Part shown: positions 31,030 to 61,425 of the stretch, piece by piece
Numbering within the stretch: the stretch's first letter is position 1
How the letters are laid out: each line of letters begins with the position of its first letter
From: Gemmatimonadales bacterium
GTDB lineage: Bacteria > Gemmatimonadota > Gemmatimonadetes > Gemmatimonadales > GWC2-71-9
DNA length: 64,000 nucleotides
NCBI GenBank assembly: GCA_035500495.1
Contig: DATJXC010000064.1
Coordinates: forward strand, 5,446 to 69,445
Direction: 5' to 3'
Notes under the pieces: generated by a model
Told to the model about the DNA's origin: nothing
Seen by the model: only the letters and a program-made list of their open reading frames with translations
Databases searched by the model: none
Position numbers and translations under genes: made by a program

Positions 31030-31100
31030 GTCCTCCGCGACGCCGGTCGGACGCCGTCGGCCCCACACTTCCTGCGCGTCACCCCCTCCGAGCATTATCT

Positions 31101-31118: not shown

Positions 31119-31156
31119 GCGGCTCGCATCGCGCCCGCGGGTCAGGGGCGTACATC

Positions 31157-31558: not shown

Positions 31559-31559
31559 G

Positions 31560-34381: not shown

Positions 34382-34408
34382 CGCGCGGGTGAGGGAGCGA
34401 GGTGGCGT

Positions 34409-34603: not shown

Positions 34604-34604
34604 C

Positions 34605-36955: not shown

Positions 36956-36957
36956 TC

Positions 36958-40216: not shown

Positions 40217-41781
<1,565 letters not shown>

Positions 41782-41784
<3 letters not shown>

Positions 41785-41806
41785 GGCTCGTCGATTTGCT
41801 GCCTCA
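41782..41806. terminator. Weak hairpin between convergent ftsB and the beta-barrel gene; both stop codons lie in the stem (TGAGGC...GCCTCA)
   Basis: 6-bp stem TGAGGC/GCCTCA with a 13-nt loop and no U-tract. Confidence 0.25.
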
Positions 41807-42448
41807 CCTGAACGCGTAGCCCACACCAAACACCACCCGCTGCACCGTTTCCTTCCACACGTCGCCGGTGAGGCGGGCTTGCTCGACGGAGTAGCCGAGC
41901 CGGCCCCACAGCGGGAGTCGGTGACTGTGATAGGTGAGGCCACCCTGTCCTCCTACGCCCGACCCGAACGACTGGGCTGCATTCACGCTGCCGCCCAACG
42001 CCGTCCATAGCTCGAAGTAGGTGGAGAGGGTCGGGCTGAGGAGCGCGCCTTCGGCGCGGAGCCGGGCCTCGAAGAGTGCCCAGCGTTGCGTTCCGGCGTT
42101 GGCGGTGTACGCCCACGCATGGGGGCCCAGCTTCAGCTCGAGCCACGGCAGGATCTTCCCGCCGACGAGCGCGTACCCCTCGACGACGTCGCGCGAGGCC
42201 GTGCCGGTCGAGTCGGGCTGCAACGACCCTTGCCAGTACCCGAGATAGAGGGCGAACCGGCGCCACCCGACCGAGCCGTCGCCGCCGAAGCTCCACCCGG
42301 ACAAGCTCTGGCTTGTCGTGCCGATCGCCGTGTGCGTCCACCAGCCGACCGCGCTCGGTTCCACGGCCAGGTGAACGGTGTGTTGGGCCGCGAGAGAAGC
42401 CGGGGACACCAGCAGCAGCCGGATCAGCAGACGCCCGCAGCGATTCAC
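41804..42448 (-). CDS. Small outer-membrane beta-barrel protein (hypothetical)
   Basis: Signal peptide VNRCGRLLIRLLLVSPASLAAQ. Alternating aromatic/Gly beta-strand pattern with a C-terminal GVGYAFR. The GTG start overlaps the upstream stop (GTGA). Confidence 0.65.
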   Translation of the reverse strand: MNRCGRLLIRLLLVSPASLAAQHTVHLAVEPSAVGWWTHTAIGTTSQSLSGWSFGGDGSVGWRRFALYLGYWQGSLQPDSTGTASRDVVEGYALVGGKILPWLELKLGPHAWAYTANAGTQRWALFEARLRAEGALLSPTLSTYFELWTALGGSVNAAQSFGSGVGGQGGLTYHSHRLPLWGRLGYSVEQARLTGDVWKETVQRVVFGVGYAFR

Positions 42449-43509
42449 GGCAGGCCGCCGATCACTGATGGCGCCCCGGCGTGCAGGTTCAACCGCACCT
42501 GACGCTTGAGATCGGCATTTTGCCGCGCGATCGACGCGTGCTCGGTGCTCCAGCGATCTCGCACGGCCTGGTTCGCGGCGATGTTGTCGGGGAGTGGCCG
42601 GCCCGGACGCTGCACGAAGAATCCGACGATGGAGGCTACGGCGATGCCGCCGGCCACGACGGCTTTGGGCCCGGATGGACCCACGCCGTTTGCCACGAGC
42701 GAGGGGAGCACCAGGACGCCGGCCGTCACGAGCCCGCCGCGCAGCAGGCTCTTGGTGCCCGCATTCCCCGTCACATGCTCGGGCAAGAACAGCGAATCCG
42801 GTGGAGCCGCGGGGAGGGGGAGGGTGTCGCGCCGCAGCAACCGGAAACCGATCCGGATCCGCAGGACGCGCTGCCCCTGGCCGGCGACGCTCGGAAGTGA
42901 GGTGACGGTCAACCGGTAGCTCCCGGTGTCTCCCACGATTCCGACGGTGTCGGTGCCGTCCCAGCGCACATCCAGGCTGTCCGAAATCGGCCCGGAGTAG
43001 AGGGTCCGCACCGTGTACCCGTCCTCCCGATTCAGCGTAACGGTGATCTGATGGAACGAGCTGGCGAACAAGTGAACCGGATAGCGATCGCTGCCGAGGT
43101 TCAGGGAGGTGTCGGCCGCGTACTCCGCCACGACGACCTTCGTGGCCTCCCGGGCAAAGTCGAAGACGTTGGTGACTTCCGGGGGGAAGATCAGCGGGTC
43201 TGGCCGGAACCGCGGGTTGAACGCCACCAGGCGACGGAACACCGCGAAGGCTGAATCCCGACGTCCCCGGAACAGATCGCTCGCCCCGAGATAGACGAAC
43301 GCGCGGGCTCGCTCGGTGCCCGCGAGGGTATCGGCGCTGGCGTGAAGGGCGAAGGCGCGGCGGAGCATTCCGGCCGCCGCGGCGTAGTCGAGGTTCTGAT
43401 AGGCCTTCACACCCTGGGCGACGTATTGCGCGGCGGTCTGCCCGGATAATGGCGACACGGCGGCGAGCACCGTGGCCGCGGCGCCGAGCAGGCGGCCCCG
43501 CCTTCTCAC
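42445..43509 (-). CDS. Hypothetical secreted/membrane protein: signal peptide, TPR-like N-domain, beta-sandwich region, two C-terminal TM helices
   Basis: Features in order: VRRRGRLLGAAATVLAAVSPLSGQ; AQGVKAYQNLDYAAAAGMLRRAF; YRLTVTS beta-rich middle; hydrophobic segments LLRGGLVTAGVLVLPSLVA and AVVAGGIAVASIVGFFV. GTGA overlap with the kinase-like gene. Confidence 0.65.
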   Translation of the reverse strand: MRRRGRLLGAAATVLAAVSPLSGQTAAQYVAQGVKAYQNLDYAAAAGMLRRAFALHASADTLAGTERARAFVYLGASDLFRGRRDSAFAVFRRLVAFNPRFRPDPLIFPPEVTNVFDFAREATKVVVAEYAADTSLNLGSDRYPVHLFASSFHQITVTLNREDGYTVRTLYSGPISDSLDVRWDGTDTVGIVGDTGSYRLTVTSLPSVAGQGQRVLRIRIGFRLLRRDTLPLPAAPPDSLFLPEHVTGNAGTKSLLRGGLVTAGVLVLPSLVANGVGPSGPKAVVAGGIAVASIVGFFVQRPGRPLPDNIAANQAVRDRWSTEHASIARQNADLKRQVRLNLHAGAPSVIGGLP

Positions 43510-45098
43510 GGCTTCAGCTCTCGCAGGACGATGTCAGTGAGGCGGAGCACCTCGCCGGGTCTGACAGTGACCGTCCGCTCCCACGGTTCGAATCCATCGC
43601 GCGTGACGCTGATTCGGTGGGTCCCAGGGGTCACCTGAAGGTCGGCCTTCGGCGTGTTGCCGAGCGACTGACCGTCGAGCGACAGCTCGCCCCAGGGGTT
43701 CGCATTGATGAACAGCCGGGCTGGCCGCTGCGGCGTGGCCACCAGTGGCGGAGGCGTCGGACGCCGCACGATGGTGGTCTCCACGGGCGCTCGCGACGGA
43801 GGCGGTTCCACCGGTGCCGCGTGCGGGGCAGCCGACGGTCCCACCGCGGGGGGCGCAGAATCGAGCGGAAAGGAGGAGGTCTGCGTCGTCGCCGGGCCAG
43901 CAGACGGTGACCCAGGGGACGTCCACCACCACAGGAGGGTCCCTAGGGCAGCGACGAGGAGAATCCCGGCTGCGATCCGGGGGGTCCGTCGAGGGGGCCG
44001 CGGCGGCGGGAGCCGATCGCGTGGCAACACGCCTTCCGGCTCGCCCTCGGGCATCATCAGGGGGCCGGTGACCGGCGTCGTTGTTCGCCCGGGGCTTGGC
44101 GTCACGCGTGGCGGAGGCAGCGCCGGCGTCGCGGTGCCGGCGGGCGTGAAGCGGGAAGTCCCGACACCGGCGAGCGCGGTTGAGAAGTCGAGGATCGTAG
44201 GGAACCGCTCCGCCGCCTTCTTGCTCAGCGCGCGGCCCACGGCCAGCGTCACATGCGGGGGAACCCCCGAGCGCACGTCTGCGAGACGTGGCGGCGGTGT
44301 GGTGAGGTGAGCCCGGGCGATCTCCTCCACGGTGTCCCCGCTGAACGGCTGCCGGCCCGCCAGGCAGGCATAGATCAGGATGGCCAGGGAATACTGATCG
44401 GACGCGGGTCCGAACAAGGGCGACGTGCCGAACCGTTCGGGCGCGACGTGACCGTAGCTCTCCTCGATGGACGCGTCGGGCTTGCGGGGAGGGAGCGGAC
44501 CGAACGCGGTGTGCATGCCGAAGTCGGCGACCCGGACCCACCCGTCGGCGTCGACCAGGACGTTGGAGAGCTTCAAGCTGCCGTGCAGGACGCCGCGGCG
44601 ATGCCCGTAGTCGAGGGCGCTGGCCACCTGTTCCACGAGCCGGAGGCAGGCGCGCAGCTCCATCGGCCCCGCCGCGCGGAGCACCTCGCCGAGCGAGCGG
44701 CTCTGGCAGTGCTCCATCGTATACCAGAGGCAGGTGTCCGTGACCCCGAAGTGAAACACGGGGACGATATGCGGATGGTCCAGTGCGGCGGCGAGAGCCG
44801 ACTCCGAGCGGAACCGGTCGATCACGTCGGGGCCGTACTGGGGCGTCAGTGGCAGCACCTTAAGCGCCGCCAGTCGGCCGGACACGAGGTCGCGTGCCAG
44901 GTAGACGCTCGAGATGGCGCCCCGCCGCAACACTCCTTCGATCCGGAACTGGCGGTCGAGCGAGCGGACGGCGGGGTCTTCGAGGTCGTTCCACTGCGGG
45001 GTATCGACCAGCACACCGGCGGTGGGCGAATAGCCGCACACCACGCATTCCTGCGTGGCTTCGGAGATTTCTCCGACGGAGCAGCGGGGGCAGATCAT
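43506..45098 (-). CDS. Zinc-ribbon / Ser-Thr kinase-fold / PEGA-domain protein; catalytic HRD replaced by HGS (predicted pseudokinase or atypical kinase)
   Basis: Features in order: CPRC...CVVC zinc ribbon; kinase subdomains LAALK (Lys), ESALAAAL (Glu), HGSLKLSN (in place of HRDLKxxN), ADFG and VAPE; Pro-rich linker; TM segment IAAGILLVAALGTLLWWW; C-terminal PEGA-like FINANPWGELSLDGQSLGNTP...GTHRISVTRDGFEPWERTV. Confidence 0.8.
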   Translation of the reverse strand: MICPRCSVGEISEATQECVVCGYSPTAGVLVDTPQWNDLEDPAVRSLDRQFRIEGVLRRGAISSVYLARDLVSGRLAALKVLPLTPQYGPDVIDRFRSESALAAALDHPHIVPVFHFGVTDTCLWYTMEHCQSRSLGEVLRAAGPMELRACLRLVEQVASALDYGHRRGVLHGSLKLSNVLVDADGWVRVADFGMHTAFGPLPPRKPDASIEESYGHVAPERFGTSPLFGPASDQYSLAILIYACLAGRQPFSGDTVEEIARAHLTTPPPRLADVRSGVPPHVTLAVGRALSKKAAERFPTILDFSTALAGVGTSRFTPAGTATPALPPPRVTPSPGRTTTPVTGPLMMPEGEPEGVLPRDRLPPPRPPRRTPRIAAGILLVAALGTLLWWWTSPGSPSAGPATTQTSSFPLDSAPPAVGPSAAPHAAPVEPPPSRAPVETTIVRRPTPPPLVATPQRPARLFINANPWGELSLDGQSLGNTPKADLQVTPGTHRISVTRDGFEPWERTVTVRPGEVLRLTDIVLRELKP

Positions 45099-45156
45099 CG
45101 GGAGCCGGGCGCCTGGGCTTTCACAGTATACACCAGTCCCCGGGGCCGGGAAATCA

Positions 45157-48100
45157 TCATTGGAACATGACGGTTGCGGTTTGCGAGATCGCCACGCCGT
45201 TCACGGTGGCCGACACGACGGAGGTTTCGGCGCCGGCCGCCTTCACATAGCCTGTCGCCACGCCGTTGCTGTCCGTTGATCCCGGCTGCTGGTAGGTGTC
45301 GGTCCCATCCGAACTGATCGTGACGGATGCTCCGCTGATGGGGTTGCCCGCGCGGTCCAGCGCGGTCACCGTGACGGTTGACGAATCGCTGGCGGCCGTG
45401 ATCGGCGAGGTCGCCACGACCGTAGACTGCGACGCCGAGACGTTGCCGGGGTTCACGGTGGCGCTGAAGCCAACCGGAGAGCCGGTGAGACCCGCAACCG
45501 TGGCCGTCGCGGTGGCGCTTCCGGCTGTCGTGCCGAGCGCGCGCGTGGCGGAGGCGATCCCGCTCGCGTTGGTCGTCGAGCTCGGGGTAATCGAGCCCCC
45601 GCCCCCGGTCACGGCCCAGGTCACCGTCGTGCCCGAGACCGGATTCCCGTTGCGGTCGGTCACGAGCACAGTGTACGCCGTGGCGAGTGTCGCGCCGATC
45701 GTATCGGTCTGTGCGTTGCCGCCGCTGAGAGCGATCGTCTTGGCGTGGCCGGCGGTCGCCGTGGCGGTGAAGGCCACGGGGGAGCCCGTGAGCCCGGTGA
45801 CGGTGGCCGTGGCGGTCTGGGCATTAGCGCCCAGGGTAGTGCCCAGCACGCGGGTCGCACTGGCGATGCCGCTCGCGTTGGTGGTCGAGCTGGGGGTGAT
45901 CGACCCAGCGCCGCCCGTCACCGCCCAGGTCACGACCGTGCCGGAGACCGGGTTCCCGTTGCGGTCAGTCACGAGCACAGTGTAAGCCGTGGCGAGCGTG
46001 GCGCCGATCGTATCGGTCTGCGCATTGCCAGCCGACAATGCCATCGTCTTTGCGTTGCCCACCGTAGCGGTGGCGGTGAAGGTGACCGGCGAACCGGTGA
46101 GGCCCGTGACCGTTGCGGTGGCGGTTTGCGCGTTAGCGCCGAGCGTAGAGCCGAGCACGCGGGTCGCCGAGGCAATGCCGCTCGCGTTGGTCGTCGAACT
46201 CGGCGTGATCGACCCGCCGCCCCCGGTCACCGCCCAGGTCACGACCGTGCCGGAGACCGGATCCCCGTTGCGGTCGGTCACCAATACCGTGTATGGGGTC
46301 GCGAGCGTGGCGCCGATCGTATCGGTCTGCGCATTGCCGGCCGACAACGCAATGGTCTTGGCGTTGCCCGCGATGGCCGTGGCGGTGAACGTCACCGGAG
46401 AACCCGTCAACCCCGTGACCGTGGCGGTCGCGGTCTGCGCATTGGCGCCGGTCGTAGTACCGAGAACGCGGGTCGCCGAGGCAATGCCGCTCGCGTTGGT
46501 CGTCGAACTCGGCGTGATCGACCCGCCACCCCCGGTCGCCGCCCAGGTCACGGTCACATTCTGGACCGGATTGGCGAGGCGATCCGTGACCAGCACGCTA
46601 TAGGCTGTGGCGAGGGTGGCGCCGATCGTATCGGTCTGCGCGTTGCCCGCCGATAGGGCGATCGTCTTCGCGTTGCCGACGGTGGCCGTGGCGGTGAAGG
46701 CGACCGGGGAGCCCGTGAGCCCCGTGACGGTGGCGGTCGCTGTCTGCGCATTGGCGCCCAGCGTGTTGCCCAGCACCCGCGTGGCACTGGCGATGCCGCT
46801 GGCGTTGGTGATGGACGACGGAGTGATCGAACCGCCCCCACCGGTCACCGCCCACGTGACCGTGGTACCCGAGACCGGGTTCCCGCCAGCGTCGGTGACG
46901 AGCACGCTATAGGCCGTGCCGAGCGTAGCGCCGATCGTGTCGGTCTGCGCATTGCCCGCCGACAAGGCGATGGTCTTGGCGTTACCCGCAGTGGCGGTGG
47001 CGGTGAACGCCACGGGGGAACCAGTCAACCCGGTGACCGTGGCGGTGGCCGTCTGTGCGTTGGCCCCAAGCGTGGTTCCCAGAACCCGCGTGGCCGAGGC
47101 GATGCCGCTCGCATTAGTCGTGGATGATGGCGTGATTGACCCGCCGCCCCCCGTCGCGGCCCAGGTGACGGTCACGTTGGCGACCGGGTTCGCCAAGCGG
47201 TCCGTCACCAGGACGGTGTAGGGGGTGGCGAGGGTAGCCCCGACGGTATCGGTTTGGGCGTTCCCCGCGTTGAGGGCGATCGTCTTGGCGTTGCCCGCCT
47301 TTGCCGTGGCGGTGAACGCAATCGGGGAGCCGGTGAGCCCGGTGACCGTGGCGCTCGCCGTCTGGGCGTTGGCCCCAAGGGTCGTGCCCAGCACCCGCGT
47401 GGCGCTTGCTATGCCACTGGCATTGGTGGTGGATGAAGGGGTGATCGAGCCGCCTCCACCGGTCGTCGCCCACGTCACGGTCGTGCCGGAGACGGGATTG
47501 CTGCCCCGATCAGTGACGAGCACGGTGTAGGCCGTGGCGAGCGTCGCGCTAATCGTGTCGGACTGGGCGTTTCCGCCGTTCAGGGCGATCGTCGCGGCAT
47601 GGCCCGCGGTGGCGGTCGCCGTGAATGCCACAGGCGAGCCAGTGAGACCGGTGACCGTTGCTGACGCGCCCTGGGGCCCTGCGGTCGTCCCCAGCACCCG
47701 CGTGGCTGACGCGATGCCGCTGGCATTGGTGACCGAGCTGGGGGTGATGGACCCGCCACCCGACGCTGTCCAGGTGACCGTTACACCGGCGACCGGGTTG
47801 CTCACCGCATCCGTGACGAGGACGGTGTAGGCTGTGGCGAGCGTAGCGCCGATGGTGTCGGTCTGCGCGTTGCCGCCGGCGAGGCCGATCGTCTTGGCGC
47901 TACCGGCGGTCGCCGTGGCGGTGAAGGTGACCGGCGAGCCGGTGAGTCCCGTGACCGCAGCGGTGGCGGTCTGCGCATTGGCGCCGGTCGTAGTACCGAG
48001 GACCCGGGTCGCGCTGGCGATGCCGCTGGCGTTGGTCGTCGAACTCGGCGTGATCGACCCGCCGCCTCCAGTCACGGCCCAGGTGACGGTCACGTTGGCA

Positions 48101-54100: not shown

Positions 54101-57100
54101 GTTGCCGTCTGGGCGTTCGCGCCGAGCGTATTGCCCAGCACGCGCGTCGCCGTGGCGATTCCACTCGCGTTCGTATTCGAGCTGGGGGTGATCGAGCCGC
54201 CGCCCCCGGTCGCGGCCCAGGTGACGGTGGTGCCGGACACGGGGTTGCCGCCCGCATCAGTGACCAGCACCGTGTAGGCCGTCGCGAGTGTGGCCCCGAT
54301 CGTGTCGGTCTGGGCGTTGCCGCCGGCGAGCGAGATGACCGATGCAGTCCCTGTGGTGATGTCGAACGCCGTACTCACGTCGTTCGTCAATCCCGTGGCC
54401 GTCGCGTCGAGCGTGTAGCCGGTGCCCACCTTGTTGACGCTCAGATCGGAGAACGTGGCCACTCCGCTTGCCGCCATGATCTGTTTGGTCCCGGCCAAGG
54501 TCGCGCCGCCCGGATTACTGCCGAAGGCCATGGTGACCTGGTTCGTGGCGGTGGTGACACGGTTCGAGAACTGGTCCAGGATCTCGACTTCCACCGCCGT
54601 CAGCGTGGCCGTGGCGGTGGTGCTGATCGGCTGGGTGAAGAACTTGACTGACGCGGCGTTCGCCGGCGTGACAGTGACCGTGGCCTGCTGGGTGATCGCC
54701 ACTCCGCCCACGGTGGCGGACACCATCTTGGACTCGGCTCTCGTGGAGCTCAGTGTCCCACTCGCGGCACCACTCACGTCCGTATTGCCGGAGGGGGGCG
54801 TCAGGGTATTCCCGTTCGTCGGGTTGGCAGCGAGGACCACCGCCTTGTTCTTGATCACGTTGCCGAACTGATCGCGTGCCGTGACGGTGATCGTGCTGAC
54901 GATGGATCCGCTCGAAGCGGCGATCGAGGCCGGGGAGGCCACGACGCTCGTCTGCGACGCGCTCACCGCATCGGGGACCGTGAACGCGGTGAACGTCAGC
55001 GGTGAGGCGACGGCGGTAGCCTGGACGAGCTGCACGCTGTCGGTCGGGCTCATCGCCGTCCCCAGCGTCCAGCTGATCGAGGCGATGCCGCTCCCGTTCG
55101 TGACCGACGTCGGAGCACTGACCGAGCCGCCACCGTCGATCACCGACCACGACACGGTCACCCCCGAGACGGGGTTGTTCGAGGCATCGCGCACGAGCAC
55201 GGAGAGCGGAGTCGGCAACGTCTTCCCGACCGTGTCGGTCTGCCGGTCCCCGGCGTTGATGGTCATCTGGGTCGCGCCACCCGCCTGCGCCGTAATGCTG
55301 AACGTCACCGAGTCCGGCCCCCCGGTGAGCGTGGCTTTCGCGATCGTTGTCTGCGTCCCAGCCGTTCCGCCGAGCATGCGAGTCGTCTGCGCGTGCCCCG
55401 TGGCGTCGGTCACTGAGGACGGCGGGCTCACGGTCCCGAGTCCGCCGCCGGCCGTCCACGTGACGGTGACCCCGGGCACCGGATTGCCGTTGGCGTCGGT
55501 GATGAGCACGTCGTGGGGCGTCGCGAGCGTGGTGCTGACCTGCCCCGTCAGGTTGTCCCCGGAGAACTTGGCCAGGTTCGCGGCGGCGCCGACCTTGGCA
55601 GTGTCGACGAAGGTGAGGGGGCTCCCGGTGAGGCCCGTCGAGGTGGCGGTGACGGTGTCGGGCTTGGCGACCGTTGAGAGCGTCCAACTCGTGAGCAGCG
55701 CGATGCCGCTCGGGTTCGTCGTTTGGGAGGCGCCGGTGATCGAGCCGTTGGACGTTCCCACGGCGGCGAACGTCACCGGCACGCCGGCCACCGGATTGCC
55801 GCTCGAGTCGCTGACGATCACCGAGGGCGGCACCGCCACCGCCGTGTTGGCGGTCGCGGTCTGGTGGTTGCCGCCGTTGATCGCGACCTGCGTCGGGTCA
55901 CCCGCGGTGATACTAATGGTCCCCGAGGTCACGGCGTTGAGACCCGTGGCCGTGAAGGTGAGCGTGCGGGCGCCGACGGTGCCGGCGATCGCCAGGTTCG
56001 TGAATTGCGCGATTCCGGAGGCGTTACTCGTCGCGGTCGTCGTGCCCCAAAGGGCGCCACCACCCGTGGCGATCGCCGCGGTGACGACGATGCCCGCCTG
56101 ACCGACCGGGTTCCCGACCGAATCTTCGACCTGGATTTCCGGCTGCTGGCTGAAGGGCTTGTTGCTCTGCGCACTGGCCGACGGCTGGGTCGCAATCGCG
56201 AGCCGCTGCGCGCCGCCGGTCAGGATGTTGAAGGGGGCGGAGGTGGCGCCGACCAGTCCCGTGGCCTGCGCCGTCAGGATATAGCCGGCACCGGCTTTGT
56301 TGATGCTCAGGTTCGAGAATTGCGCGACCCCGGCCACGGCATTCACGGGATTGGTTCCGCCGAGGGTGCCACCTCCCGGGTTCGCGGCAAACCCGAGGGT
56401 CACCGCATTCGTGGCCCCGGTGACGCGGTTGCTGTCCAGATCCTGCACCTCGACCTGCACCGTCGGGATCGTCGCTCCCGCCGCCGTCGTCACAGGCGGA
56501 ACGATGAACTTGAGGTGGTCGGCAGCGCCGGGGTTGACGACGACCGATGCGGTCTGCGTCACCACCACATGGTTGATGGTCACCGAAACGGTCTTGGTCT
56601 CGGCGACCGTCGAGGTGAACGAGCCGGTGGCCACGCCGGATGCGTTGGTCAGACTGCTCGGCGGGGTCACGTTGGTGCCGCCCGGCGGGGTCACCGTGAT
56701 CGCCACGGTGTCCCCACTAATCAGATTGCCAAATGCATCCTTGGCAGTGACCGTGACGGTCGACGCCGCTCCGCCCGCCGTGATCGGCGATGCCGCTGTC
56801 ACGGTTGATTGGGAGGCCGAGACGGGGGCAGGGGTGACGATCACGGTCTGCGTTTGCGTCACATTGACTCCGCCGATCTTGGCGGAGACGGTCTTGGTCT
56901 CGGCAACCGTTGAGCCGAAGGAACCCTTCGCGTTCCCATTCACATCGGTCACCACGGCTGGCTGGGTGACGGTATCTCCGGTGGCGGGGGAAACGAGGAT
57001 CTTTACCGTGTCCCCTGAGACCGGGTTGCCGCTCGAGTCCCGCGCCGTGACGGTGACGGTGTCGGTCCCGGAGCCGGCGACGATGGAGCCCAGCGCCACC

Positions 57101-60100
57101 GCGAGGGTGGACTGGGTCCCGGACACGCCGCCGGCGGTGATGCTGAACGGAGTGCTGAGGGTGTCCCGCAGCCCGGTGGCCGTTGCGAGGAGGTTGTATC
57201 CCGTGCCGGCCTTGTCCACCGACAGGTTGCTGAACGTCGCGACTCCGGCCACGGCGGACATGGTCTTGTTGCCCGCGAGAGTGGCGGAGCCCGCGTTGGC
57301 GAGCGCGACCGTGACTGCCGCAACGAAGCCGGTGTCGGTGTTGCCGAACGTGTCGCGCGCCGCGACCTGTACCGGGGGAGCGAGGGTCGCGTTGGCGTTG
57401 CCGCCACCGGGTTGCACCGCGAACTCGAGGTGATTCGCCGGCCGCGGCCGGATGTTGAAGGCGGTGCTCGTGTCGCCGGCGAGCCCACTCGACGATGCGG
57501 TGAGAGTATAACCAGCGCCACTCTTGTCGAGATTCAGATCGCCAAAGGTGGCCACCCCGGCCGTGGCGGTCACGGTCAGCGTGCCGCGCAGCGTGCTGCC
57601 GCCGGGGTTGTTGCCTCGCGCGATGGTGATGGGCCCGGTAAAGCTCGGGACCGTATTCCCCTGCAGGTCCTGCGCGGCGACCTGCACCGCGGGCGCGATG
57701 CTCGTGCCGGCGGTGGTACTGCTCGGCTGCACGATGAACCGCACCCGCGCGGCCCCTCCAGCCGTGACGTTGAACGTCGAGCTCGTGGCGGGGGAGGGGC
57801 CGGTGGCGGTGGCCTTGAGGGTATATCCGGTTCCGGCCTTATCGATCGTGAGATTGGAGAATGTCGCCACGCCCGCCACCGCCGCCTTGCTCAAGGTCCC
57901 CGTCAACGTGCCACCGCTCGGGTTCGTGGCGATCGCGATGCCAATGCTGCCGGTGAACGCCGTCGCGACGTTGCCGAACGCGTCCTGGGCGGTCACCTGG
58001 ACGGCCGGGATGGTCGCTCCCGCGACGGCGTCCGCGGGTGGCACCGAGAAAATCAGGGTGGCTGCCGTCGCCGGCTTGACAATCACGGTCGCCGTCTGGG
58101 TGATCGTGTCCGTCCCGATCGTGGCGAAGACCGTCTTCGCGCCCGCGAGGGTCGAGGCGAGCGACCCGGTCGTCATTCCGTTCACGCCGGTCGCGGCCGA
58201 AGGTTGGTTCAGCGTATTCCCGTTTCCGGGCGTGGCCACGAGGTTGACGGTCGCGCCGCTCACTGGGTTCCCGAGACTGTCCCGGGCGGTCACGGTGATC
58301 ACCGCCGTTCCACTTCCCGCCACGATGGTATCGGGACTCGGCGCCACGGTGGAAAGGGACCGGGAGATGGACCCCGGCTGCACATTGAACGGCGAGCTCG
58401 TCACCGTGAGCGTGGAGCTGCTGGCGCGCAGTGTGTATCCCGTGCCCGCCTTGTCGATCGACAGGTTCGAGAAGGTCGCCACTCCGCTCACGGCCCTCAC
58501 CGTCCTTGTTCCGGAAAGCGTGCCACCGCCTGGGTTGGTGCCGATCACGATCGTGATGCTGTCGCCAAAGCTCGCGAGGGTGTTCCCGAGTGCGTCTTGC
58601 GCGGCAACCTTGATGGCCGGCGCGATGGCGCTGCCGGCAGTGGTGCTGCCCGGTGGCTGCGTGGTGAAGACGAGCTGCGACGGCGTGCGCGCGACCACGA
58701 AGGCCGTGTCTGGGTTGCTGCCGAAGTGAGTCCACGCGCTCCGCCGATTGGTGTTGTCGACCGCCCGCGCCTGCCAGTGATAGGCCACGTTGTCGCTGAC
58801 CAGAATGGAGAGGCTCGCGACGGAGTTGTTGGCGACGGCGCTGCTCGACCCCGTGGCCGTATCGGCGAAGGCATTACCGGCCGGCTCCAGCTCGATCTCG
58901 AGCCGCACCAGGGCTCCCGAGTCGGGGTCGGCGAGGGTGCCCTTGAAGACGACGCTCGACTGCTTCGCAATACCGCCAACCGGAATTGGCGTCACCCCGT
59001 CGGCCTGGAACTGACCGAGGGTGGCTGGGGGATCGGGTGGGGACTGCAGGACGACGCGGAAGTCGGTGGCGCTCTCGGCGTTGGCCCCGAAGCTCACCCA
59101 CGCGCTCAGCCGGCCCGTCTGGTCTTCCGTACGAGCCTGCCAGTGGTAGCTGGTGTTGTTGATCAGGCTGGTCACCCGGACAGCGGCGATGCCGGTGGTC
59201 GAAACCGCTGTGCTGGAATCGGTCGGGTTTTGGTTAAACGTCTGCCCGACTGGGCGCACTTCGATCAACAGTTTCAGTTGGTCGCCGGGATCGGGATCGG
59301 TGAGTGTGCCCTTCAGCACAACACACGCGGTATCCACCGTCACTCCGGTCGTAATGCTCGTGACGCTGTCACACTTGAACATGCCAAGTGATGCTGGCAC
59401 GAACGGGGGCTGAGGAATCGATACGATGAAATCCGGAGCCCCCGGGATGGTACCGAACGGGGTCCAGTTTCCCCGCCTCCCAGTCTGGTCCACCGCGCGC
59501 ACGCGCCAGTGATACGGGGTGTCGTCGCTCAACCCCGTGACGAGCACCTGTGCGCGTTTGCCGTTTCCCACGACCGTCCCGGTCGCGGTGACGGCGCCGG
59601 CGAAACCCTGCGAATTGGGAATGACTTCGGCTTCGAGGTACAGACTGTCGCCTAGGTCCGGGTCGGTCACCCGCGCCTCGATCACCATCTGCGACTTCGC
59701 AACGGCGCCGCCCAGGGGGATGACGGTCGTGGAGTCGTCCTGGAACTGGGCGGGCGAATCCGGCGGGTTCGGAATGCGCGGGTGCGCCACGTGCAGAACG
59801 AAAGCGCCGGTGTCCCCCGCTGCCGCGGTCGTCGCCTCGATCGTGTACGTCCCGGTACGCGGCAGCACCACGTAAGGAAGGCAGACCTCACCGGCGATCC
59901 CGCTGCAACCGCCCGATTCCCCCATCGGCGGCACCGCCGGAGCGGTATTGGTATCGAGCACGAGGTGCCCGTTGAAGGCGGCGGAGTCGAGCTGGATCGT
60001 GATCGTGTCGCCGGCGGTGCCGCCGAAGCTGAACAGCTTCGCGAAGCTGCCGGCGCGGTGCGGGGCACCGCAGTCCGCCGAGGTCAGCGTGTCGGCCACC

Positions 60101-60600
60101 CGCGCGCCCGCGAGCAGCGGCGTGACGGCGCAGGACTGAACGGTGAGCCGTACGCCGATGGGAAGTGATCCGCCCGACGCCCCGGTGGATGAGACCAGCA
60201 GCGTATCGCGGTAGGTGCCGGCCGCGAGTCCCGCGGGATTCAGGAAGACCCGGACCTTCGACGCGCCGGCGGGTGTGGCGGTGCCGCTCGTCGCGCTGAA
60301 CGAAAGCCAGGGACTCGCGCCTTTGGTCGTCAGCCGCCAGTCGAGCGATCCGGCACCGAGATTGCCGATGATGAGCGTGTCGGTCCGCTTGGCCGTGGCG
60401 CCCGCGAAGGCGGAATCCGCGAGGCTGTCGGGAGCGAGTTTCAAGAGCCCACCTTCAGGCGGGTTCACCAGCTTGTCGAGCTGACAGGTCGCGAGGACGG
60501 CGGTGGCGGCCATGACGAAGACCGCCGCCAAGCGGTTGGTGGCTGCGCGTGGCCGCGCTGGGCGAATGTCCAGAGGTTCTAAACGCACGAGAGGACGCAA
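45157..60600 (-). CDS. Giant (5,147 aa) putative cell-surface lipoprotein built from tandem bacterial Ig-like domains
   Basis: Single uninterrupted 15.4-kb ORF. N-terminus ...RLAAVFVMAATAVLATC (lipobox-like). It is followed by BACON-like, PPC-like and three FN3-like modules, alternating Ig-like modules, then about 29 near-identical units and a terminal Big_1-like domain. Start TTG 60600 or GTG 60588 (uncertain). Confidence 0.85.
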   Translation of the reverse strand: MRPLVRLEPLDIRPARPRAATNRLAAVFVMAATAVLATCQLDKLVNPPEGGLLKLAPDSLADSAFAGATAKRTDTLIIGNLGAGSLDWRLTTKGASPWLSFSATSGTATPAGASKVRVFLNPAGLAAGTYRDTLLVSSTGASGGSLPIGVRLTVQSCAVTPLLAGARVADTLTSADCGAPHRAGSFAKLFSFGGTAGDTITIQLDSAAFNGHLVLDTNTAPAVPPMGESGGCSGIAGEVCLPYVVLPRTGTYTIEATTAAAGDTGAFVLHVAHPRIPNPPDSPAQFQDDSTTVIPLGGAVAKSQMVIEARVTDPDLGDSLYLEAEVIPNSQGFAGAVTATGTVVGNGKRAQVLVTGLSDDTPYHWRVRAVDQTGRRGNWTPFGTIPGAPDFIVSIPQPPFVPASLGMFKCDSVTSITTGVTVDTACVVLKGTLTDPDPGDQLKLLIEVRPVGQTFNQNPTDSSTAVSTTGIAAVRVTSLINNTSYHWQARTEDQTGRLSAWVSFGANAESATDFRVVLQSPPDPPATLGQFQADGVTPIPVGGIAKQSSVVFKGTLADPDSGALVRLEIELEPAGNAFADTATGSSSAVANNSVASLSILVSDNVAYHWQARAVDNTNRRSAWTHFGSNPDTAFVVARTPSQLVFTTQPPGSTTAGSAIAPAIKVAAQDALGNTLASFGDSITIVIGTNPGGGTLSGTRTVRAVSGVATFSNLSIDKAGTGYTLRASSSTLTVTSSPFNVQPGSISRSLSTVAPSPDTIVAGSGTAVITVTARDSLGNPVSGATVNLVATPGNGNTLNQPSAATGVNGMTTGSLASTLAGAKTVFATIGTDTITQTATVIVKPATAATLIFSVPPADAVAGATIPAVQVTAQDAFGNVATAFTGSIGIAIATNPSGGTLTGTLSKAAVAGVATFSNLTIDKAGTGYTLKATATGPSPATSSTFNVTAGGAARVRFIVQPSSTTAGTSIAPAVQVAAQDLQGNTVPSFTGPITIARGNNPGGSTLRGTLTVTATAGVATFGDLNLDKSGAGYTLTASSSGLAGDTSTAFNIRPRPANHLEFAVQPGGGNANATLAPPVQVAARDTFGNTDTGFVAAVTVALANAGSATLAGNKTMSAVAGVATFSNLSVDKAGTGYNLLATATGLRDTLSTPFSITAGGVSGTQSTLAVALGSIVAGSGTDTVTVTARDSSGNPVSGDTVKILVSPATGDTVTQPAVVTDVNGNAKGSFGSTVAETKTVSAKIGGVNVTQTQTVIVTPAPVSASQSTVTAASPITAGGAASTVTVTAKDAFGNLISGDTVAITVTPPGGTNVTPPSSLTNASGVATGSFTSTVAETKTVSVTINHVVVTQTASVVVNPGAADHLKFIVPPVTTAAGATIPTVQVEVQDLDSNRVTGATNAVTLGFAANPGGGTLGGTNPVNAVAGVAQFSNLSINKAGAGYILTAQATGLVGATSAPFNILTGGAQRLAIATQPSASAQSNKPFSQQPEIQVEDSVGNPVGQAGIVVTAAIATGGGALWGTTTATSNASGIAQFTNLAIAGTVGARTLTFTATGLNAVTSGTISITAGDPTQVAINGGNHQTATANTAVAVPPSVIVSDSSGNPVAGVPVTFAAVGTSNGSITGASQTTNPSGIALLTSWTLSTVAKPDTVTATSTGLTGSPLTFVDTAKVGAAANLAKFSGDNLTGQVSTTLATPHDVLITDANGNPVPGVTVTWTAGGGLGTVSPPSSVTDATGHAQTTRMLGGTAGTQTTIAKATLTGGPDSVTFSITAQAGGATQMTINAGDRQTDTVGKTLPTPLSVLVRDASNNPVSGVTVSWSVIDGGGSVSAPTSVTNGSGIASISWTLGTAMSPTDSVQLVQATAVASPLTFTAFTVPDAVSASQTSVVASPASIAASSGSIVSTITVTARDQFGNVIKNKAVVLAANPTNGNTLTPPSGNTDVSGAASGTLSSTRAESKMVSATVGGVAITQQATVTVTPANAASVKFFTQPISTTATATLTAVEVEILDQFSNRVTTATNQVTMAFGSNPGGATLAGTKQIMAASGVATFSDLSVNKVGTGYTLDATATGLTNDVSTAFDITTGTASVISLAGGNAQTDTIGATLATAYTVLVTDAGGNPVSGTTVTWAATGGGGSITPSSNTNASGIATATRVLGNTLGANAQTATATVSGLTGSPVTFTATATIGNAKTIALSAGNAQTDTIGATLATAYTVLVTDRLGNPVPSVTVTWAVTGGGGSITPSSSTNASGIASATRVLGTTLGASAQTATATVTGLTGSPITFTATATAGAANAIALSGGNSQTDTVGATLATPYTVLVTDRNGNPVAGTVVTWAVTGGGGSITPSSTTNASGIASATRVLGAALGSQTASATGTGLTGSPVGFTATATFGHAATIALNAGNAQTDTIGATLATAYTVLVTDRLGNPVSNVTVTWAVTGGGGSITPSSTTNASGIATATRVLGTTLGANAQTATAAVTGLTGSPVAFTATATAGDAKTIALSSGNAQTDTIGATLATPYAVLVTDRNGNPVAGTVVTWAVTGGGGSITPSSTTNASGIASATRVLGTTLGANLQTATAAVTGLTGSPIVFSATATVGHAATIALSAGNAQTDTIGATLATAYTVLVTDRNANPVSGTVVTWAVTGGGGSITPSSTTNASGIASATRVLGTTLGSQTASATVAGLTGSPVGFTATATAGHAATIALNAGNAQTDTIGATLTSPYTVLVTDRNGDPVAGTIVTWAVTGGGGSITPSSTTNASGIATATRVLGTTLGANAQTASATVTGLTGSPVGFTATATAGTAKTIALSGGNTQTDTIGATLATLYTVVVTDRNGNSVSGTVVTWAVTGGGGSITPSSTTNASGIASATRVLGTTPGSATASAAVTGLTGSPVAFTATVNAGHAATIALDAGNAQTDTIGATLATPYTVLVTDRSGNPVSGTTVTWAVTGGGGSITPSSVTNASGVATATRVLGTAPGSATATASVTGLTGSPVTFTATATTGHAATIALNAGNAQTDTIGATLATAYAVLVTDRSGNPVSGTTVTWAVTGGGGSITPSSVTSVSGIATASRVLGTTAGSATASATVAGLSGSPVAFTATVTAGHATTIALNAGNAQTDTIGATLATAYAVLVTDRGGNPVSGTTVTWAVTTGGGSITPSSTTNASGIASATRMLGTTPGSASASATVAGLTGSPVAFTATVTTGHAAIMALNSGDAQTDTIGASLGTAYAVLVTDRSGNPVLGTTVTWAVTGGGGSITPSSTTNASGIASATRVLGTTPGSATASATVTGLTGSPVAFGATVNAGHAATIALNGGNAQTDTIGATLATAYTVLVTDRAANPVAGTTVTWAVTGGGGSITPSSTTNASGIASVTRVLGPTLGANAQTATATVTGLTGSPVAFTATATAGNAKTIALSAGNTQTDTIGATLATAYTVLVTDRLGNPVSGTTVTWAATGGGGSITPSSVTNASGIATATRVLGSTLGANAQTATATVTGLTGSPVVFTATATAGNAKTIALNGGNTQTDTIGATLPTAYTVLVTDRLGNPVSGTTVTWAVTGGGGSITPSSTTNASGIASATRVLGTTLGANAQTATATVTGLTGSPVAFTATATVGAAKTIALSGGNTQTDTIGATLVTAYTVLVTDRLANPVQNVTVTWAVTGGGGSITPSSTTNASGIASATRVLGTTLGANAQIATATVTGLTGSPVTFTATATVGNAKTIALSAGNAQTDTIGATLTTAYAVLVTDRNGNPVSGTTVTWAVTGGGGSITPSSATNASGIASATRVLGTTLGTNAQTASATVTGLTGSPVAFAATATVGNAKTIALNAGNAQTDTAGATLAISYTVLVTDRLANPVANVTVTWAVTGGGGSITPSSTTSASGIASATRVLGTTLGANAQTATATVTGLTGSPVTFTATATAGNAKTIVLSAGNAQTDTIGATLGTAYSVLVTDGGGNPVAGITVTWAATGGGGSITPSSITNASGIASATRVLGNTLGANAQTATATVTGLTGSPVTFTATATVGNAKTIALSAGNAQTDTIGATLATAYSVLVTDRLANPVQNVTVTWAATGGGGSITPSSTTNASGLASATRVLGSTLGASAQTATATVTGLTGSPVSFTATATVGNAKTIALSGGNAQTDTVGATLATPYTVLVTDRLANPVANVTVTWAVTGGGGSITPSSTTNASGIASATRVLGTTTGANAQTATAAVTGLTGSPVTFTATATAGSAKTIGLAGGNAQTDTIGATLATAYTVLVTDAVSNPVAGVTVTWTASGGGSITPSSVTNASGIASATRVLGTTAGPQGASATVTGLTGSPVAFTATATAGHAATIALNGGNAQSDTISATLATAYTVLVTDRGSNPVSGTTVTWATTGGGGSITPSSTTNASGIASATRVLGTTLGANAQTASATVTGLTGSPIAFTATAKAGNAKTIALNAGNAQTDTVGATLATPYTVLVTDRLANPVANVTVTWAATGGGGSITPSSTTNASGIASATRVLGTTLGANAQTATATVTGLTGSPVAFTATATAGNAKTIALSAGNAQTDTIGATLGTAYSVLVTDAGGNPVSGTTVTWAVTGGGGSITPSSITNASGIASATRVLGNTLGANAQTATATVTGLTGSPVAFTATATVGNAKTIALSAGNAQTDTIGATLATAYSVLVTDRLANPVQNVTVTWAATGGGGSITPSSTTNASGIASATRVLGTTTGANAQTATATVTGLTGSPVTFTATAIAGNAKTIALSAGNAQTDTIGATLATPYTVLVTDRNGDPVSGTVVTWAVTGGGGSITPSSTTNASGIASATRVLGSTLGANAQTATATVTGLTGSPVTFTATATVGNAKTMALSAGNAQTDTIGATLATAYTVLVTDRNGNPVSGTVVTWAVTGGAGSITPSSTTNASGIASATRVLGTTLGANAQTATATVTGLTGSPVAFTATATAGHAKTIALSGGNAQTDTIGATLATAYTVLVTDRNGNPVSGTTVTWAVTGGGGSITPSSTTNASGIASATRALGTTAGSATATATVAGLTGSPVGFSATVNPGNVSASQSTVVATSPITAASDSSTVTVTALDRAGNPISGASVTISSDGTDTYQQPGSTDSNGVATGYVKAAGAETSVVSATVNGVAISQTATVMFQ
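45445..54350 (-). repeat. In-frame tandem array of about 29 near-identical ~303-309-bp units (101-103 aa Ig-like domains)
   Basis: Unit consensus: GNAKTIALSAGNAQTDTIGATLATAYTVLVTDRLGNPVSGTTVTWAVTGGGGSITPSSTTNASGIASATRVLGTTLGANAQTATATVTGLTGSPVAFTATATA. I counted 29 SITPSS motifs. The antisense ORFs in the track recur every 309 nt (46607, 46916, 47225, 47534, 48143, 48452, 48761...). Boundaries are +/- 30 nt. Confidence 0.9.
58700..59760 (-). repeat. Three divergent ~120-aa FN3-like modules, each ending in Y-H-W-(R/Q)-x-R-x-x-D-x-T-x-R-x-(G/S)-x-W-x-x-F-G
   Basis: The three motifs are PYHWRVRAVDQTGRRGNWTPFG (~59.5 kb), SYHWQARTEDQTGRLSAWVSFG (~59.14 kb) and AYHWQARAVDNTNRRSAWTHFG (~58.78 kb). 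Spacing is ~365 nt. Boundaries are approximate. Confidence 0.6.
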
Positions 60601-60644
60601 TTTATCCCGCGAAGCATCACTTGGTGCAGGACGTGTGCCACACC

Positions 60645-60674
60645 TTGACCGTGACTTATGGACGCAGCTAGGCT
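60645..60674 (+). promoter_or_regulatory. Candidate sigma70-type promoter for tRNA(CAT): TTGACC - 18 nt - TAGGCT
   Basis: TTGACC at 60645..60650 and TAGGCT at 60669..60674. The mature tRNA 5' end lies 10 nt downstream of the -10 hexamer. Confidence 0.35.
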
Positions 60675-60683
60675 TTCCGCTAC

Positions 60684-60757
60684 GGCGGCGTAGCTCAGCT
60701 GGTTAGAGCAGCGGAATCATAATCCGCGGGTCGGGGGTTCGAGTCCCTCCGCCGCTA
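60684..60757 (+). tRNA. tRNA with anticodon CAT: elongator tRNA-Met or tRNA-Ile2 (lysidine-modified); not initiator-like
   Basis: Reads GGCGGCG-TA-GCTC-AGCTGGTTA-GAGC-A-GCGGA-ATCATAA-TCCGC-GGGTC-GGGGG-TTCGAGT-CCCTC-CGCCGCT-A. The cloverleaf is complete. Position 1:72 is a G-U wobble. The anticodon stem lacks the three consecutive G-C pairs of initiator tRNA. Confidence 0.88.
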
Positions 60758-60781
60758 TTGGCGGGCACGGAAGTGTTTGAG

Positions 60782-60806
60782 CGAGGCCGGGTTACGCCCG
60801 GCCTCG
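60782..60806. terminator. GC-rich hairpin (10-bp stem CGAGGCCGGG/CCCGGCCTCG, 5-nt loop) between tRNA(CAT) and the convergent flavin reductase gene; a second 6-bp hairpin follows at 60806..60821
   Basis: Read directly. The second hairpin is GTTGCG-TCAA-CGCAAC. There is no clear U-tract on either strand, so intrinsic-terminator function is inferred only from position. Confidence 0.45.
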
Positions 60807-60825
60807 TTGCGTCAACGCAACGCTT

Positions 60826-61425
60826 CTATCGAGGCATGTCGCGCCAGGTAAGCGCCCGGATATCCCGGGAGTGGGCCCGCGCGACCGCCTGGGCCGCGCC
60901 GAGGTGGTGCTCGTAGGCCTCTCGCCAGCTGGCCGGGAGGTTGGCGCGGAAATACGCGGCGGTCATGACCTGGCCCCTGGGCTTCGCCGCCGCTCCGTAG
61001 CCGACGGCGACGACGTCGCCTAAAAAACAGGTCGAAGAGCCGGTGTCCATCGCATTGATGACGCGGCATTCAAAATGAGCGTGGCACTCGTCGAGCACCG
61101 GAGCGCCCAACGTCCCCAGGCGGTGGGGGATCCCAGCGAGCTTGTCGCGATCGCGCCCACTGGCGAACCCCAGGGCATGAATCAGATCGAACTGGTCCTG
61201 GCGCAGCAGGTGCAGCACGAACCGGCCGCTGTCGAAAATCAGGTCGTGACTGAAATTGAACTTGTGGATGAAGACCGCGAGGCGCGGGATGTCGGGGACG
61301 ATGGAGGCACGCACGGCGCTGTCGATGATCATGCCGTTCCGCTTCCCCCCGCGCTCCGATGTAATGGCGACCACCGGCGAGGTGAGGTTGCGGAGCAGCT
61401 GGTAGGTCGCCTGCGGATCGAACAT
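60826..61425 (-). CDS. Flavin reductase-like FMN-binding domain protein
   Basis: 199 aa. The run LTSPVVAITSERGGKRNGMIIDSAV...RFVLHLL matches the flavin reductase (split-barrel) family pattern by recall. TATCTT lies 7 nt upstream of the ATG. Confidence 0.7.
   Translation of the reverse strand: MFDPQATYQLLRNLTSPVVAITSERGGKRNGMIIDSAVRASIVPDIPRLAVFIHKFNFSHDLIFDSGRFVLHLLRQDQFDLIHALGFASGRDRDKLAGIPHRLGTLGAPVLDECHAHFECRVINAMDTGSSTCFLGDVVAVGYGAAAKPRGQVMTAAYFRANLPASWREAYEHHLGAAQAVARAHSRDIRALTWRDMPR

Follow-up and report, generated by a model that had tools for sequence, protein, structure and literature searches.

A four-gene block in a 64,000-nt stretch of a Gemmatimonadales metagenome-assembled genome (MAG; GenBank assembly GCA_035500495.1, contig DATJXC010000064.1, positions 5,446 to 69,445; the whole stretch is referred to below as the window) was found to belong to a gene cluster that is conserved across the Gemmatimonadota. 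The block encodes a giant probable lipoprotein with immunoglobulin (Ig)-type repeats, a membrane-spanning protein with a kinase fold and a PEGA domain, an adaptor with tetratricopeptide repeat (TPR)-like and Ig-like domains, and a small outer-membrane β-barrel. Across 134 loci, the order of these genes is maintained wherever their sequence is visible, and the four genes are likely to be functionally linked. Our preferred reading, to which we assign a probability of roughly 45%, is that the block is a Gemmatimonadota-specific envelope module, whose products would assemble across the envelope into a complex for anchoring or displaying the lipoprotein. Judged from the sequences, the conserved partner in this complex is the N-terminal handle of the lipoprotein, and not its giant size.

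The four-gene block

45157..60600, minus strand: giant probable lipoprotein gene, taken as the longest open reading frame (5147 aa); the true start is possibly a few codons downstream
45099..45156, minus strand: intergenic gap of 58 nt, from the stop codon of the giant gene to the next ATG
43506..45098, minus strand: gene for the zinc-ribbon/pseudokinase/transmembrane/Pro-rich linker/PEGA protein (530 aa; Pkinase 4e-32, PEGA 3.5e-11)
42445..43509, minus strand: adaptor gene (354 aa)
41804..42448, minus strand: outer-membrane β-barrel gene (214 aa)

The block had first been delineated in a sequence-only reading of the window, and a six-frame list of open reading frames (ORFs) reproduced it exactly to the base, including the 58-nt gap, the overlaps between genes, and the ftsB and tRNA genes that border it. 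The domain calls of that reading also hold, in Pfam for the giant and 530-aa proteins and in AlphaFold2 (AF2) models for the 354-aa and 214-aa proteins. The three genes downstream of the giant gene (hereafter, the trio) are chained by GTGA start/stop overlaps, read in the sequence at 43506-43509 and 42445-42448. A site scan of the 45099..45156 gap revealed neither a terminator-like nor a promoter-like site, and in other loci the same junction is often a 4-nt overlap instead of a gap. Sigma-70 promoter and terminator scans of both ends of the giant gene and of the trio were uninformative.

Conservation of the gene order

A genome scan seeded with an alignment of adaptor sequences yielded 54 species-level loci, all labelled Gemmatimonadota except two that are labelled only “bacterium”. 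A metagenome scan yielded 80 further loci, apparently mostly from soil, bringing the set to 134. The metagenome scan was seeded with the most divergent adaptors and returned mostly the same clades, since the usable pattern was the conserved motif YLGA[SA]E[FL][FY][RL]G. Mapping by tblastn in the 54 and 80 loci revealed that the order lipoprotein, PEGA protein, 354-aa adaptor, and barrel, as well as the strand, is kept wherever the sequence is visible. The barrel gene directly follows the adaptor gene in 51 of 52 informative genome loci and 63 of 64 informative metagenome loci; in the two loci scored as lacking it (L054 and L101), it lies just outside the scoring window, and it is thus present in every informative locus. 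A PEGA protein gene stands ahead of the adaptor gene in 45/51 genome and 73/74 metagenome loci, and an Ig or handle gene ahead of the PEGA gene in 38/41 and 47/51 loci, respectively, where five of the seven misses are contigs that start in or beside the kinase gene. Many MAG contigs stop 1-4 kb upstream of the adaptor gene, inside the repeat gene, as a consequence of its richness in repeats in short-read assemblies. In other assemblies, genes that were called independently likewise overlap their neighbors by 4 nt, and the lipoproteins there have lengths of 5526, 2143, and at least 3495 aa.

The block was found in at least five downstream contexts (DivIC/enolase, PfkB/Wzi-like, DnaJ/GrpE, ECF-sigma/CBM48, and GGDEF-EAL), and its upstream neighbors are also several and different. 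Clustering of the downstream ORFs was noisy, with a high G+C content and many spurious ORFs, and was used solely to separate the groups of flanking context. Because the same block recurs in at least five differing surroundings, the adjacency of its genes is maintained and not merely inherited, and the linkage holds down to about 33% adaptor identity. The outcome of this neighborhood analysis, a test proposed in the sequence-only reading, was clearly positive: among the 134 loci, virtually all of the informative ones have homologs of the 354-aa and 214-aa proteins beside a gene for an Ig-repeat lipoprotein.

The probable lipoprotein: a constant handle and a variable fiber

60484..60600, minus strand: long signal peptide with the lipobox L-A-T-C (Cys39) at its end, read from the sequence
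60448..60486, minus strand: post-Cys tether CQLDKLVNPPEGG, conserved in the 12 N-termini read, window included
60130..60447, minus strand: BACON_2-like first Ig-like domain, aa 52-157 (Pfam BACON_2 E value 3.5e-5, just below the gathering score)
59776..60132, minus strand: pre-peptidase C-terminal-like (PPC-like) β-sandwich with conserved Cys residues, aa 157-275
58687..59775, minus strand: three FN3-like domains, aa ~276-638, each with YHW[RQ][AV]R (at 363, 485, and 607)
54326..58686, minus strand: heterogeneous Big_1/Invasin_D3 domains, aa ~639-2090 (Pfam)
45441..54325, minus strand: 29 near-identical Big_1-type repeats of 101-103 aa (Tandem Repeats Finder period 309 nt, 28.9 copies, 77% matches)

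The N-terminal region of the giant protein was found to be its most constant part. In the 12 orthologous N-termini read, window included, a Cys residue is invariant after the hydrophobic stretch, and next comes a tether, for which the consensus across the family is C-[KRQ]-[LIV]-x-[DK]-L-[ILV]; in many cases N-x-P-P continues it. The tether motif is absent from the other lipobox-like ORFs of the window. The residue at position -1 of the lipobox is Thr in the window protein and in most orthologs (GTTC, IGTC, LPTC, GATC, and VATC), where the canonical residues are [GAS]. This substitution hints at either a relaxed signal peptidase II specificity in the phylum or a different processing route; none of the other three mature proteins contains a Cys that could serve as a disulfide partner for the lipobox Cys. 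The BACON_2 assignment of the first domain recurs as a faint precomputed match in the ortholog of locus L137. The same ortholog carries a faint precomputed match to PF04151 in its PPC-like domain, for which the window protein gave no significant Pfam match, and the “ADCGAPHR” block is kept in every orthologous N-terminus that reaches into this domain. The FN3-like region gave weak Pfam matches to Pur_ac_phosph_N, fn3, and Ig_Rha78A_N.

Family scans of the giant protein (Pfam and NCBIfam, E <= 0.1) covered aa 1-2000 and the last 499 aa. The protein matches Big_1 (4e-60) and Invasin_D3 (3e-36), with seven Big_1 and five Invasin_D3 stretches in its first 2000 aa. The spacing of protein motifs confirmed the downstream repeat array, after which one last Big_1 domain follows. 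The copy number of 29 is provisional, as the units are 77% identical in DNA, the assembly is from short reads, and the contigs of many related MAGs break inside this gene. The C-terminal 499 aa matched no NCBIfam family and gave Ig-type domains and one weak holin match in Pfam. Neither a type IX secretion system (T9SS) C-terminal domain nor RTX, IAT_beta, or LysM was detected in the scanned segments.

Comparison among loci separates the handle from the fiber. The handle, consisting of the invariant Cys, the C-[KRQ]-L-x-[DK]-L tether, and the BACON-like, PPC-like, and FN3-like domains, is constant, and the Ig fiber ranges from 0 to about 50 domains and can switch repeat type, with one clade carrying Big_3_5 in place of, or besides, Big_1. 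At locus L022, which is in the orthologous position (its upstream flavin reductase is 75% identical to that of the window), the lipoprotein has only ~130 aa, comprising a signal peptide, CRLDKLINTPPP, and one BACON-like domain. This small protein is homologous to aa 30-150 of the giant protein (E value 7e-15) and is followed by an intact trio. The 609-aa lipoprotein of L137 has BACON, PPC, and FN3-like domains and lacks Big_1, and the 330-aa lipoprotein of L133 has three Big_1 domains. Two loci show signs of a tandem or partly duplicated module: in L133 (196-2116), the 330-aa lipoprotein is preceded by another, broken adaptor copy, and in L062 (3914-4108), the barrel gene is followed at a distance of about 130 nt by the start of a second gene of the handle type.

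The predicted outer-membrane barrel and the TPR-Ig adaptor

The 214-aa protein is predicted to be an outer-membrane, 10-stranded barrel of a new family. Its AF2 model, built from 49 sequences, has a predicted local distance difference test (pLDDT) score of 91.5 and consists of ten antiparallel strands joined by very short loops. The protein ends in GVGYAFR, and its predicted features (a signal peptide, an even number of amphipathic antiparallel strands that close into a barrel, and an aromatic-rich strand at the C-terminus) are those of outer-membrane β-barrel proteins. In Foldseek searches, the best matches were the 10-stranded outer-membrane barrels OpcA and OmpT/Pla, at about 10% identity; 87 PDB structures matched at E <= 0.001, and nearly all of the 50 listed are outer-membrane barrels. 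At the level of sequence, no Pfam or NCBIfam family was found at E <= 0.1, and the barrel profile gave only chance matches (E > 0.5) against PDB sequences. A HMMER search of 1.84 billion representative sequences returned 548 clusters; 150 of them were listed, and almost all of these are stand-alone proteins with lengths of 200-225 aa. The family conserves YxQG, RDVVEG, and ETV motifs; under standard barrel topology and with the strand boundaries of the model, its conserved polar residues (YxQG, RDVVEG, R122, and E200-T201) would lie near the extracellular half of strands 3, 4, 6, and 10.

The 354-aa protein, deposited as hypothetical protein VMH88_08655 of a Gemmatimonadales MAG, likewise appears to represent a new family. 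It has 195 homologs, a minority of which carry precomputed Pfam matches (TPR-type or FlgD_ig). The AF2 model (pLDDT 85, from a 50-sequence alignment) comprises a signal peptide, five TPR-like helices (residues 26-122), a β-sandwich (126-226), a transmembrane hairpin (255-275/283-299), and a long C-terminal helix, and the linker between the Ig domain and the hairpin, DTLPxPxPPxDSLFLPE, is conserved. According to this model, the folded domains would be periplasmic and the hairpin would hold the protein in the inner membrane. For the helical domain, Foldseek gave matches to PilF, to MamA, and to collagen prolyl hydroxylase, in the last case to its TPR-like peptide-binding domain, and the Ig domain resembles FlgD (Pfam FlgD_ig 6e-6, sub-threshold; profile against PDB 2.6e-4). 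Matches to the model were found at the level of the TPR and Ig domains, and none spans the whole protein. The Pfam and NCBIfam scans of the window protein gave nothing beyond the sub-threshold FlgD_ig match, and thus no Pfam TPR match.

In one locus (L142:219-1253), the two proteins are joined. Its 344-aa product, P0319, combines the signal peptide and TPR domain of an adaptor, a Pro-rich linker, and a barrel in a single polypeptide (hhalign probability 99.8% for each half), and its gene directly follows the PEGA gene with a 4-nt overlap. This fusion places the TPR domain at the barrel. An apparent fusion of adaptor and barrel in L045 (1912-3453) was rejected. It is an in-frame junction in which the adaptor is truncated within its second transmembrane helix and the barrel retains a Met and a signal peptide of its own, and it is probably an in-frame deletion or an assembly artifact.

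The pseudokinase-PEGA protein

45033..45092, minus strand: N-terminal zinc ribbon, CPRC-x12-CVVC, present in most orthologs
44151..44963, minus strand: kinase-fold domain (PF00069 4e-32, above the gathering score)
43923..43976, minus strand: single transmembrane helix IAAGILLVAALGTLLWWW, read from the sequence
43536..43721, minus strand: C-terminal periplasmic PEGA domain (PF08308 3.5e-11, residues 462-521, above the gathering score)

The 530-aa protein consists, in order, of the zinc ribbon, the kinase fold, a Pro-rich segment, the transmembrane helix, a second Pro-rich linker, and the PEGA domain, for which CarboxypepD_reg gave an additional, weak match. The Gly-rich loop of the window protein is degenerate (LRRGAISS), the Lys and the DFG motif are kept, and the catalytic loop reads HGSLKLSN (44562..44588) in place of HRDLKxxN, with HRD replaced by HGS and the catalytic Asp missing. 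An alignment of 40 orthologs revealed the same tendency throughout: the Gly-rich loop is degenerate in 40/40, the Arg of HRD is kept in none, and most have N, G, S, or A in place of the catalytic Asp. The minority that keeps the Asp mostly has DFW or DFA for DFG, and the full set of GxGxxG, VAIK Lys, HRD Asp, and DFG was found in none of the 40. As the catalytic motifs are degenerate across the family, the sequences identify it as a family of pseudokinases, or at best of very atypical kinases. One clade lacks the kinase gene. In seven loci (L027, L031, L035, L036, L041, L044, and L065), the PEGA gene is absent and the Ig gene abuts the adaptor gene.

Boundaries and flanking regions

41506..41784, plus strand: convergent ftsB/DivIC gene (Pfam DivIC 2.7e-13), a boundary outside the module
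60684..60757, plus strand: tRNA-Met (CAT), identified by ARAGORN and Rfam, a boundary outside the module

On the left flank, an enolase gene precedes the DivIC/FtsB gene. Beyond the tRNA-Met on the right lie genes for a flavin reductase, TilS, and an HPRT-like protein with a phosphoribosyltransferase domain. At 0.67-0.71, the block has the same G+C content as the remaining window, and the composition profile has no island signature; the block thus bears no mark of foreign DNA. Rfam detected two tRNAs only in the window, and no riboswitch ahead of the giant gene. A G+C-rich inverted repeat, GAGGCCGGG-CGTAA-CCCGGCCTC, was seen at 60780..60830 on the minus strand, after the flavin-reductase gene and before the antisense tRNA-Met, and is not followed by a run of T residues. 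Its position suggests that the giant gene probably has its own promoter in or near 60601..60683. The left neighborhood of the block (window 29749..41784) is syntenic with loci L135, L138, and L139, which share genes for Lon protease, a Memo-like protein, YjeF/Nnr, Reg_prop, an acyltransferase, enolase, and DivIC.

Two divergent loci were recorded separately. In L053 (7152-14694), the most divergent locus, a transmembrane and PEGA protein that lacks the kinase domain, an adaptor, and a barrel are chained by 4-nt overlaps; upstream of them is a response regulator that is sigma-54-dependent, and downstream is a PAS-GGDEF-EAL protein. In L124 (979-5549), the adaptor homolog has 563 aa, with its TPR-like module triplicated, and the gene upstream of the kinase encodes a 283-aa signal-peptide protein that ends in MQFGVF, like an outer-membrane protein, and is not an Ig lipoprotein.

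Proposed function and alternative explanations

In the proposed model, the client would be a probable lipoprotein that consists of a constant N-terminal handle and a variable C-terminal Ig fiber. The barrel and the TPR adaptor would take over the handle at the outer membrane, where they would insert or anchor it, such that the fiber would be displayed on the cell surface. A third partner is usual, namely the inner-membrane protein, which has its zinc-ribbon pseudokinase in the cytoplasm and, on a long Pro-rich linker, its PEGA domain in the periplasm; together with the adaptor, it would provide a scaffold across the periplasm by which the complex is positioned or regulated. From the conserved gene order and the predicted folds, we infer physical interaction of the proteins, surface exposure of the fiber, and a direction of action toward anchoring or export rather than signaling. 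A pure translocon role is unlikely on geometric grounds, given the modeled 10-stranded barrel, and simple anchoring fits better than translocation. We regard as doubtful the more far-reaching version of this proposal, in which the module would be a new, phylum-specific pathway for bringing lipoproteins to the cell surface and keeping them there, independent of Slam, T9SS, and the type V secretion system (T5SS), with the tether, as a short sorting signal beside the lipidated Cys, and the BACON/PPC handle recognized by the TPR adaptor and a minimal 10-stranded barrel, and with coupling to the cytoplasm through the transmembrane pseudokinase.

Several observations weigh against the anchoring-and-display model. 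The Thr at position -1 of the lipobox is non-canonical, and lipidation is therefore probable, not certain. The 10-stranded, short-looped barrel is too narrow for folded Ig domains and the block encodes no energy source, so that translocation would require the β-barrel assembly machinery (BAM) or another machine. The absence of the PEGA/pseudokinase gene from seven loci indicates that it is not essential to the core mechanism. Two divergent loci, L053 and L124, have the trio with no lipoprotein gene adjacent (within 20 kb and 6 kb, respectively). The adaptor-barrel fusion P0319 is a singleton on a 1.9-kb contig. No relative was identified outside the Gemmatimonadota; the library of representative sequences has no taxonomy attached. 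Finally, all of the interactions in the model derive from synteny and predicted folds.

The sequence-only reading had described the 530-aa protein as signaling-like and as spanning from the cytoplasm to the periplasm. By its sequence it is a pseudokinase, and it can be dispensed with, as seven loci lack the gene and L053 lacks the kinase domain. In an unlikely alternative, the complex would be a sensor resembling the Rcs system: the lipoprotein at the barrel would act as an antenna, its state would be read by the periplasmic TPR-Ig adaptor and PEGA domain, and the signal would pass through the inner membrane to the pseudokinase, an allosteric scaffold for a cytoplasmic partner. Consistent with such a sensor, one protein with a signaling fold spans from cytoplasm to periplasm, the layout of lipoprotein, outer-membrane barrel, and inner-membrane sensor resembles that of RcsF-OmpA-IgaA, and signaling genes adjoin two of the loci (a sigma-54 activator and a PAS-GGDEF-EAL protein flank the trio in L053, and a GAF/PAS sensor adjoins the block in L138). 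However, several lineages have lost the kinase domain or the whole PEGA gene while the lipoprotein, adaptor, and barrel stay, the catalytic motifs are degenerate, and the block has no conserved partner of the response regulator, FHA protein, or phosphatase kind. It is less probable still that the trio is a general envelope module, for example an outer-to-inner membrane tether or a biogenesis factor, and that the lipoprotein gene is a mere co-transcribed neighbor with no physical partnership. The two trios that lack an adjacent lipoprotein gene, and the uniform stand-alone size of a barrel family with 548 clusters, speak for such independence. Against it, the lipoprotein gene keeps its place directly upstream in at least five contexts and at adaptor identities as low as about 33%, the handle stays in place where the fiber is lost, and the tether and handle domains are confined, in the sequences examined, to this lipoprotein family.

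It is improbable that the entire lipoprotein, fiber included, is periplasmic and forms a scaffold or coat beneath the outer membrane that is organized by the trio. The conserved domains are membrane-proximal, the partner domains (TPR, Ig, and PEGA) are all periplasmic, and no translocon-sized pore is encoded, all of which such an arrangement could accommodate; about 50 Ig domains, however, would extend far beyond the width of the periplasm, and Big_1, Invasin_D3, BACON, and PPC are typical of surface or secreted proteins (Pfam descriptions). That the block is a divergent member of a known pathway, whether an inverse autotransporter, a type I secretion system (T1SS) adhesin, a T9SS type-B cargo with a PorP barrel, or Slam/type XI secretion system (T11SS), is very improbable. 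Big_1 and Invasin_D3 passenger domains are common to intimin and invasin, and the pairing of a barrel and a TPR protein is reminiscent of Slam and of PorP/PorE (PMC5449769, PMC9143113). Nevertheless, as the sequence-only reading had held for T1SS, T5SS, and T9SS, the scanned segments of the four proteins matched no family model of these systems or of Slam (IAT_beta, LysM, RTX, T9SS C-terminal domain, PorP_SprF, and DUF560), the barrel has 10 strands and not 12 or 14, the cargo has a Sec/lipoprotein-type N-terminus, and no ATP-binding cassette (ABC), membrane fusion protein (MFP), or TolC gene is present in the block.

The observation itself holds and has gained support through testing, and its interpretation moves away from an “apparatus for a giant protein”. 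The proposal of a dedicated apparatus gains from the conserved linkage; its partner, however, is the handle, as orthologous lipoproteins have ~130 (L022), 330 (L133), 609 (L137), 2143, and 5526 aa. Downstream genes with no adjacent repeat gene, which the sequence-only reading had named as evidence against itself, were encountered in just the two divergent loci described above.

Significance and comparison with known systems

The module is built from known domain types. Its proposed role would make it a candidate, with few parts, for the surface transport of lipoproteins and for the holding of very long adhesin-like fibers in diderms outside the Proteobacteria and Bacteroidota. Its clients offer a natural range, from a ~130-aa handle to more than 5000 aa, and a recognizable sorting-like motif, and it brings two new protein families, that of the barrel (548 clusters) and that of the adaptor, with annotations merely as hypothetical proteins throughout. 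If correct, the model would describe a new solution to surface display and the first dedicated surface-structure machinery for the Gemmatimonadota, abundant soil bacteria with almost no envelope biology. It would also be a case in which a bacterial transmembrane pseudokinase forms part of an envelope complex.

A literature search found no description of this module. The inverse autotransporters (T5e; intimin and invasin) share with it arrays of Big_1 and Invasin_D3 domains that project from an outer-membrane barrel anchor. In T5e proteins, however, the barrel is an N-terminal, 12-stranded IAT_beta domain in the passenger polypeptide, whereas the barrel of the block is a separate 10-stranded polypeptide; IAT_beta and LysM are absent from aa 1-2000 of the giant protein (E <= 0.1), and the fiber protein has a lipobox. 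The giant adhesins of the T1SS (LapA/SiiE type) differ in that no ABC, MFP, or TolC gene is found among the three downstream genes, the flanks are housekeeping genes, and the N-terminus is of the Sec/lipoprotein type. The 530-aa protein has the fold and topology of PknB-like Hanks-type kinases, with a cytoplasmic kinase domain, one transmembrane helix, and an extracytoplasmic domain, but differs from them in lacking the HRD Arg, in retaining the Asp in only a minority of orthologs, and in the degenerate Gly-rich loop of all 40.

In the RcsF-OmpA/C/F-IgaA system of Enterobacteria, a lipoprotein associated with a small outer-membrane barrel is monitored by an inner-membrane protein with periplasmic domains. 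The block is similar in this layout of lipoprotein, small barrel, and inner-membrane protein with periplasmic domains. No sequence relationship between the two was found, the lipoprotein of the block can exceed 5000 aa, and the cytoplasmic output is a pseudokinase and not a phosphorelay.

Slam proteins (T11SS) combine TPR and barrel domains and serve surface lipoproteins (PMC5449769, PMC8406197). The block resembles them in its lipoprotein client and in its combination of a periplasmic TPR domain with an outer-membrane barrel, and its relative P0319 fuses the two in a Slam-like manner. The Slam barrel, however, is a 14-stranded DUF560 domain, whereas that of the block has 10 strands and no DUF560 match. 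The N-terminal TPR domain of Slam is part of the same protein as the barrel, whereas the TPR protein of the block is normally separate and anchored in the inner membrane. Slam substrates have a C-terminal barrel domain (PMC5449769, and partly general knowledge), whereas the clients of the block have a conserved N-terminal tether.

By way of working, the closest analog may be the PorP/PorE complex of the Bacteroidota. A PorP-like barrel binds and anchors type-B T9SS cargo, as SprF does with the giant adhesin SprB (PMC9143113), and PorE combines TPR and carboxypeptidase-regulatory-like folds; the genes for the cargo, the PorP-like, and the PorE-like proteins are often adjacent (PMC9143113; also PMC12635249). 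Similarly, in the block, a very large and repetitive surface protein is encoded beside its own small outer-membrane barrel, the genes are clustered, and the accessory proteins have TPR and carboxypeptidase-regulatory-like (here, PEGA-like) folds. The two systems differ in that the cargo of the block has no T9SS C-terminal domain and its barrel has no PorP_SprF match, that the cargo would be anchored by an N-terminal lipobox and not by a C-terminal signal, and that the TPR and PEGA domains reside on two inner-membrane-anchored proteins, one of which has a cytoplasmic pseudokinase. At most, the block works like PorP/PorE or Slam, and it is a member of neither.

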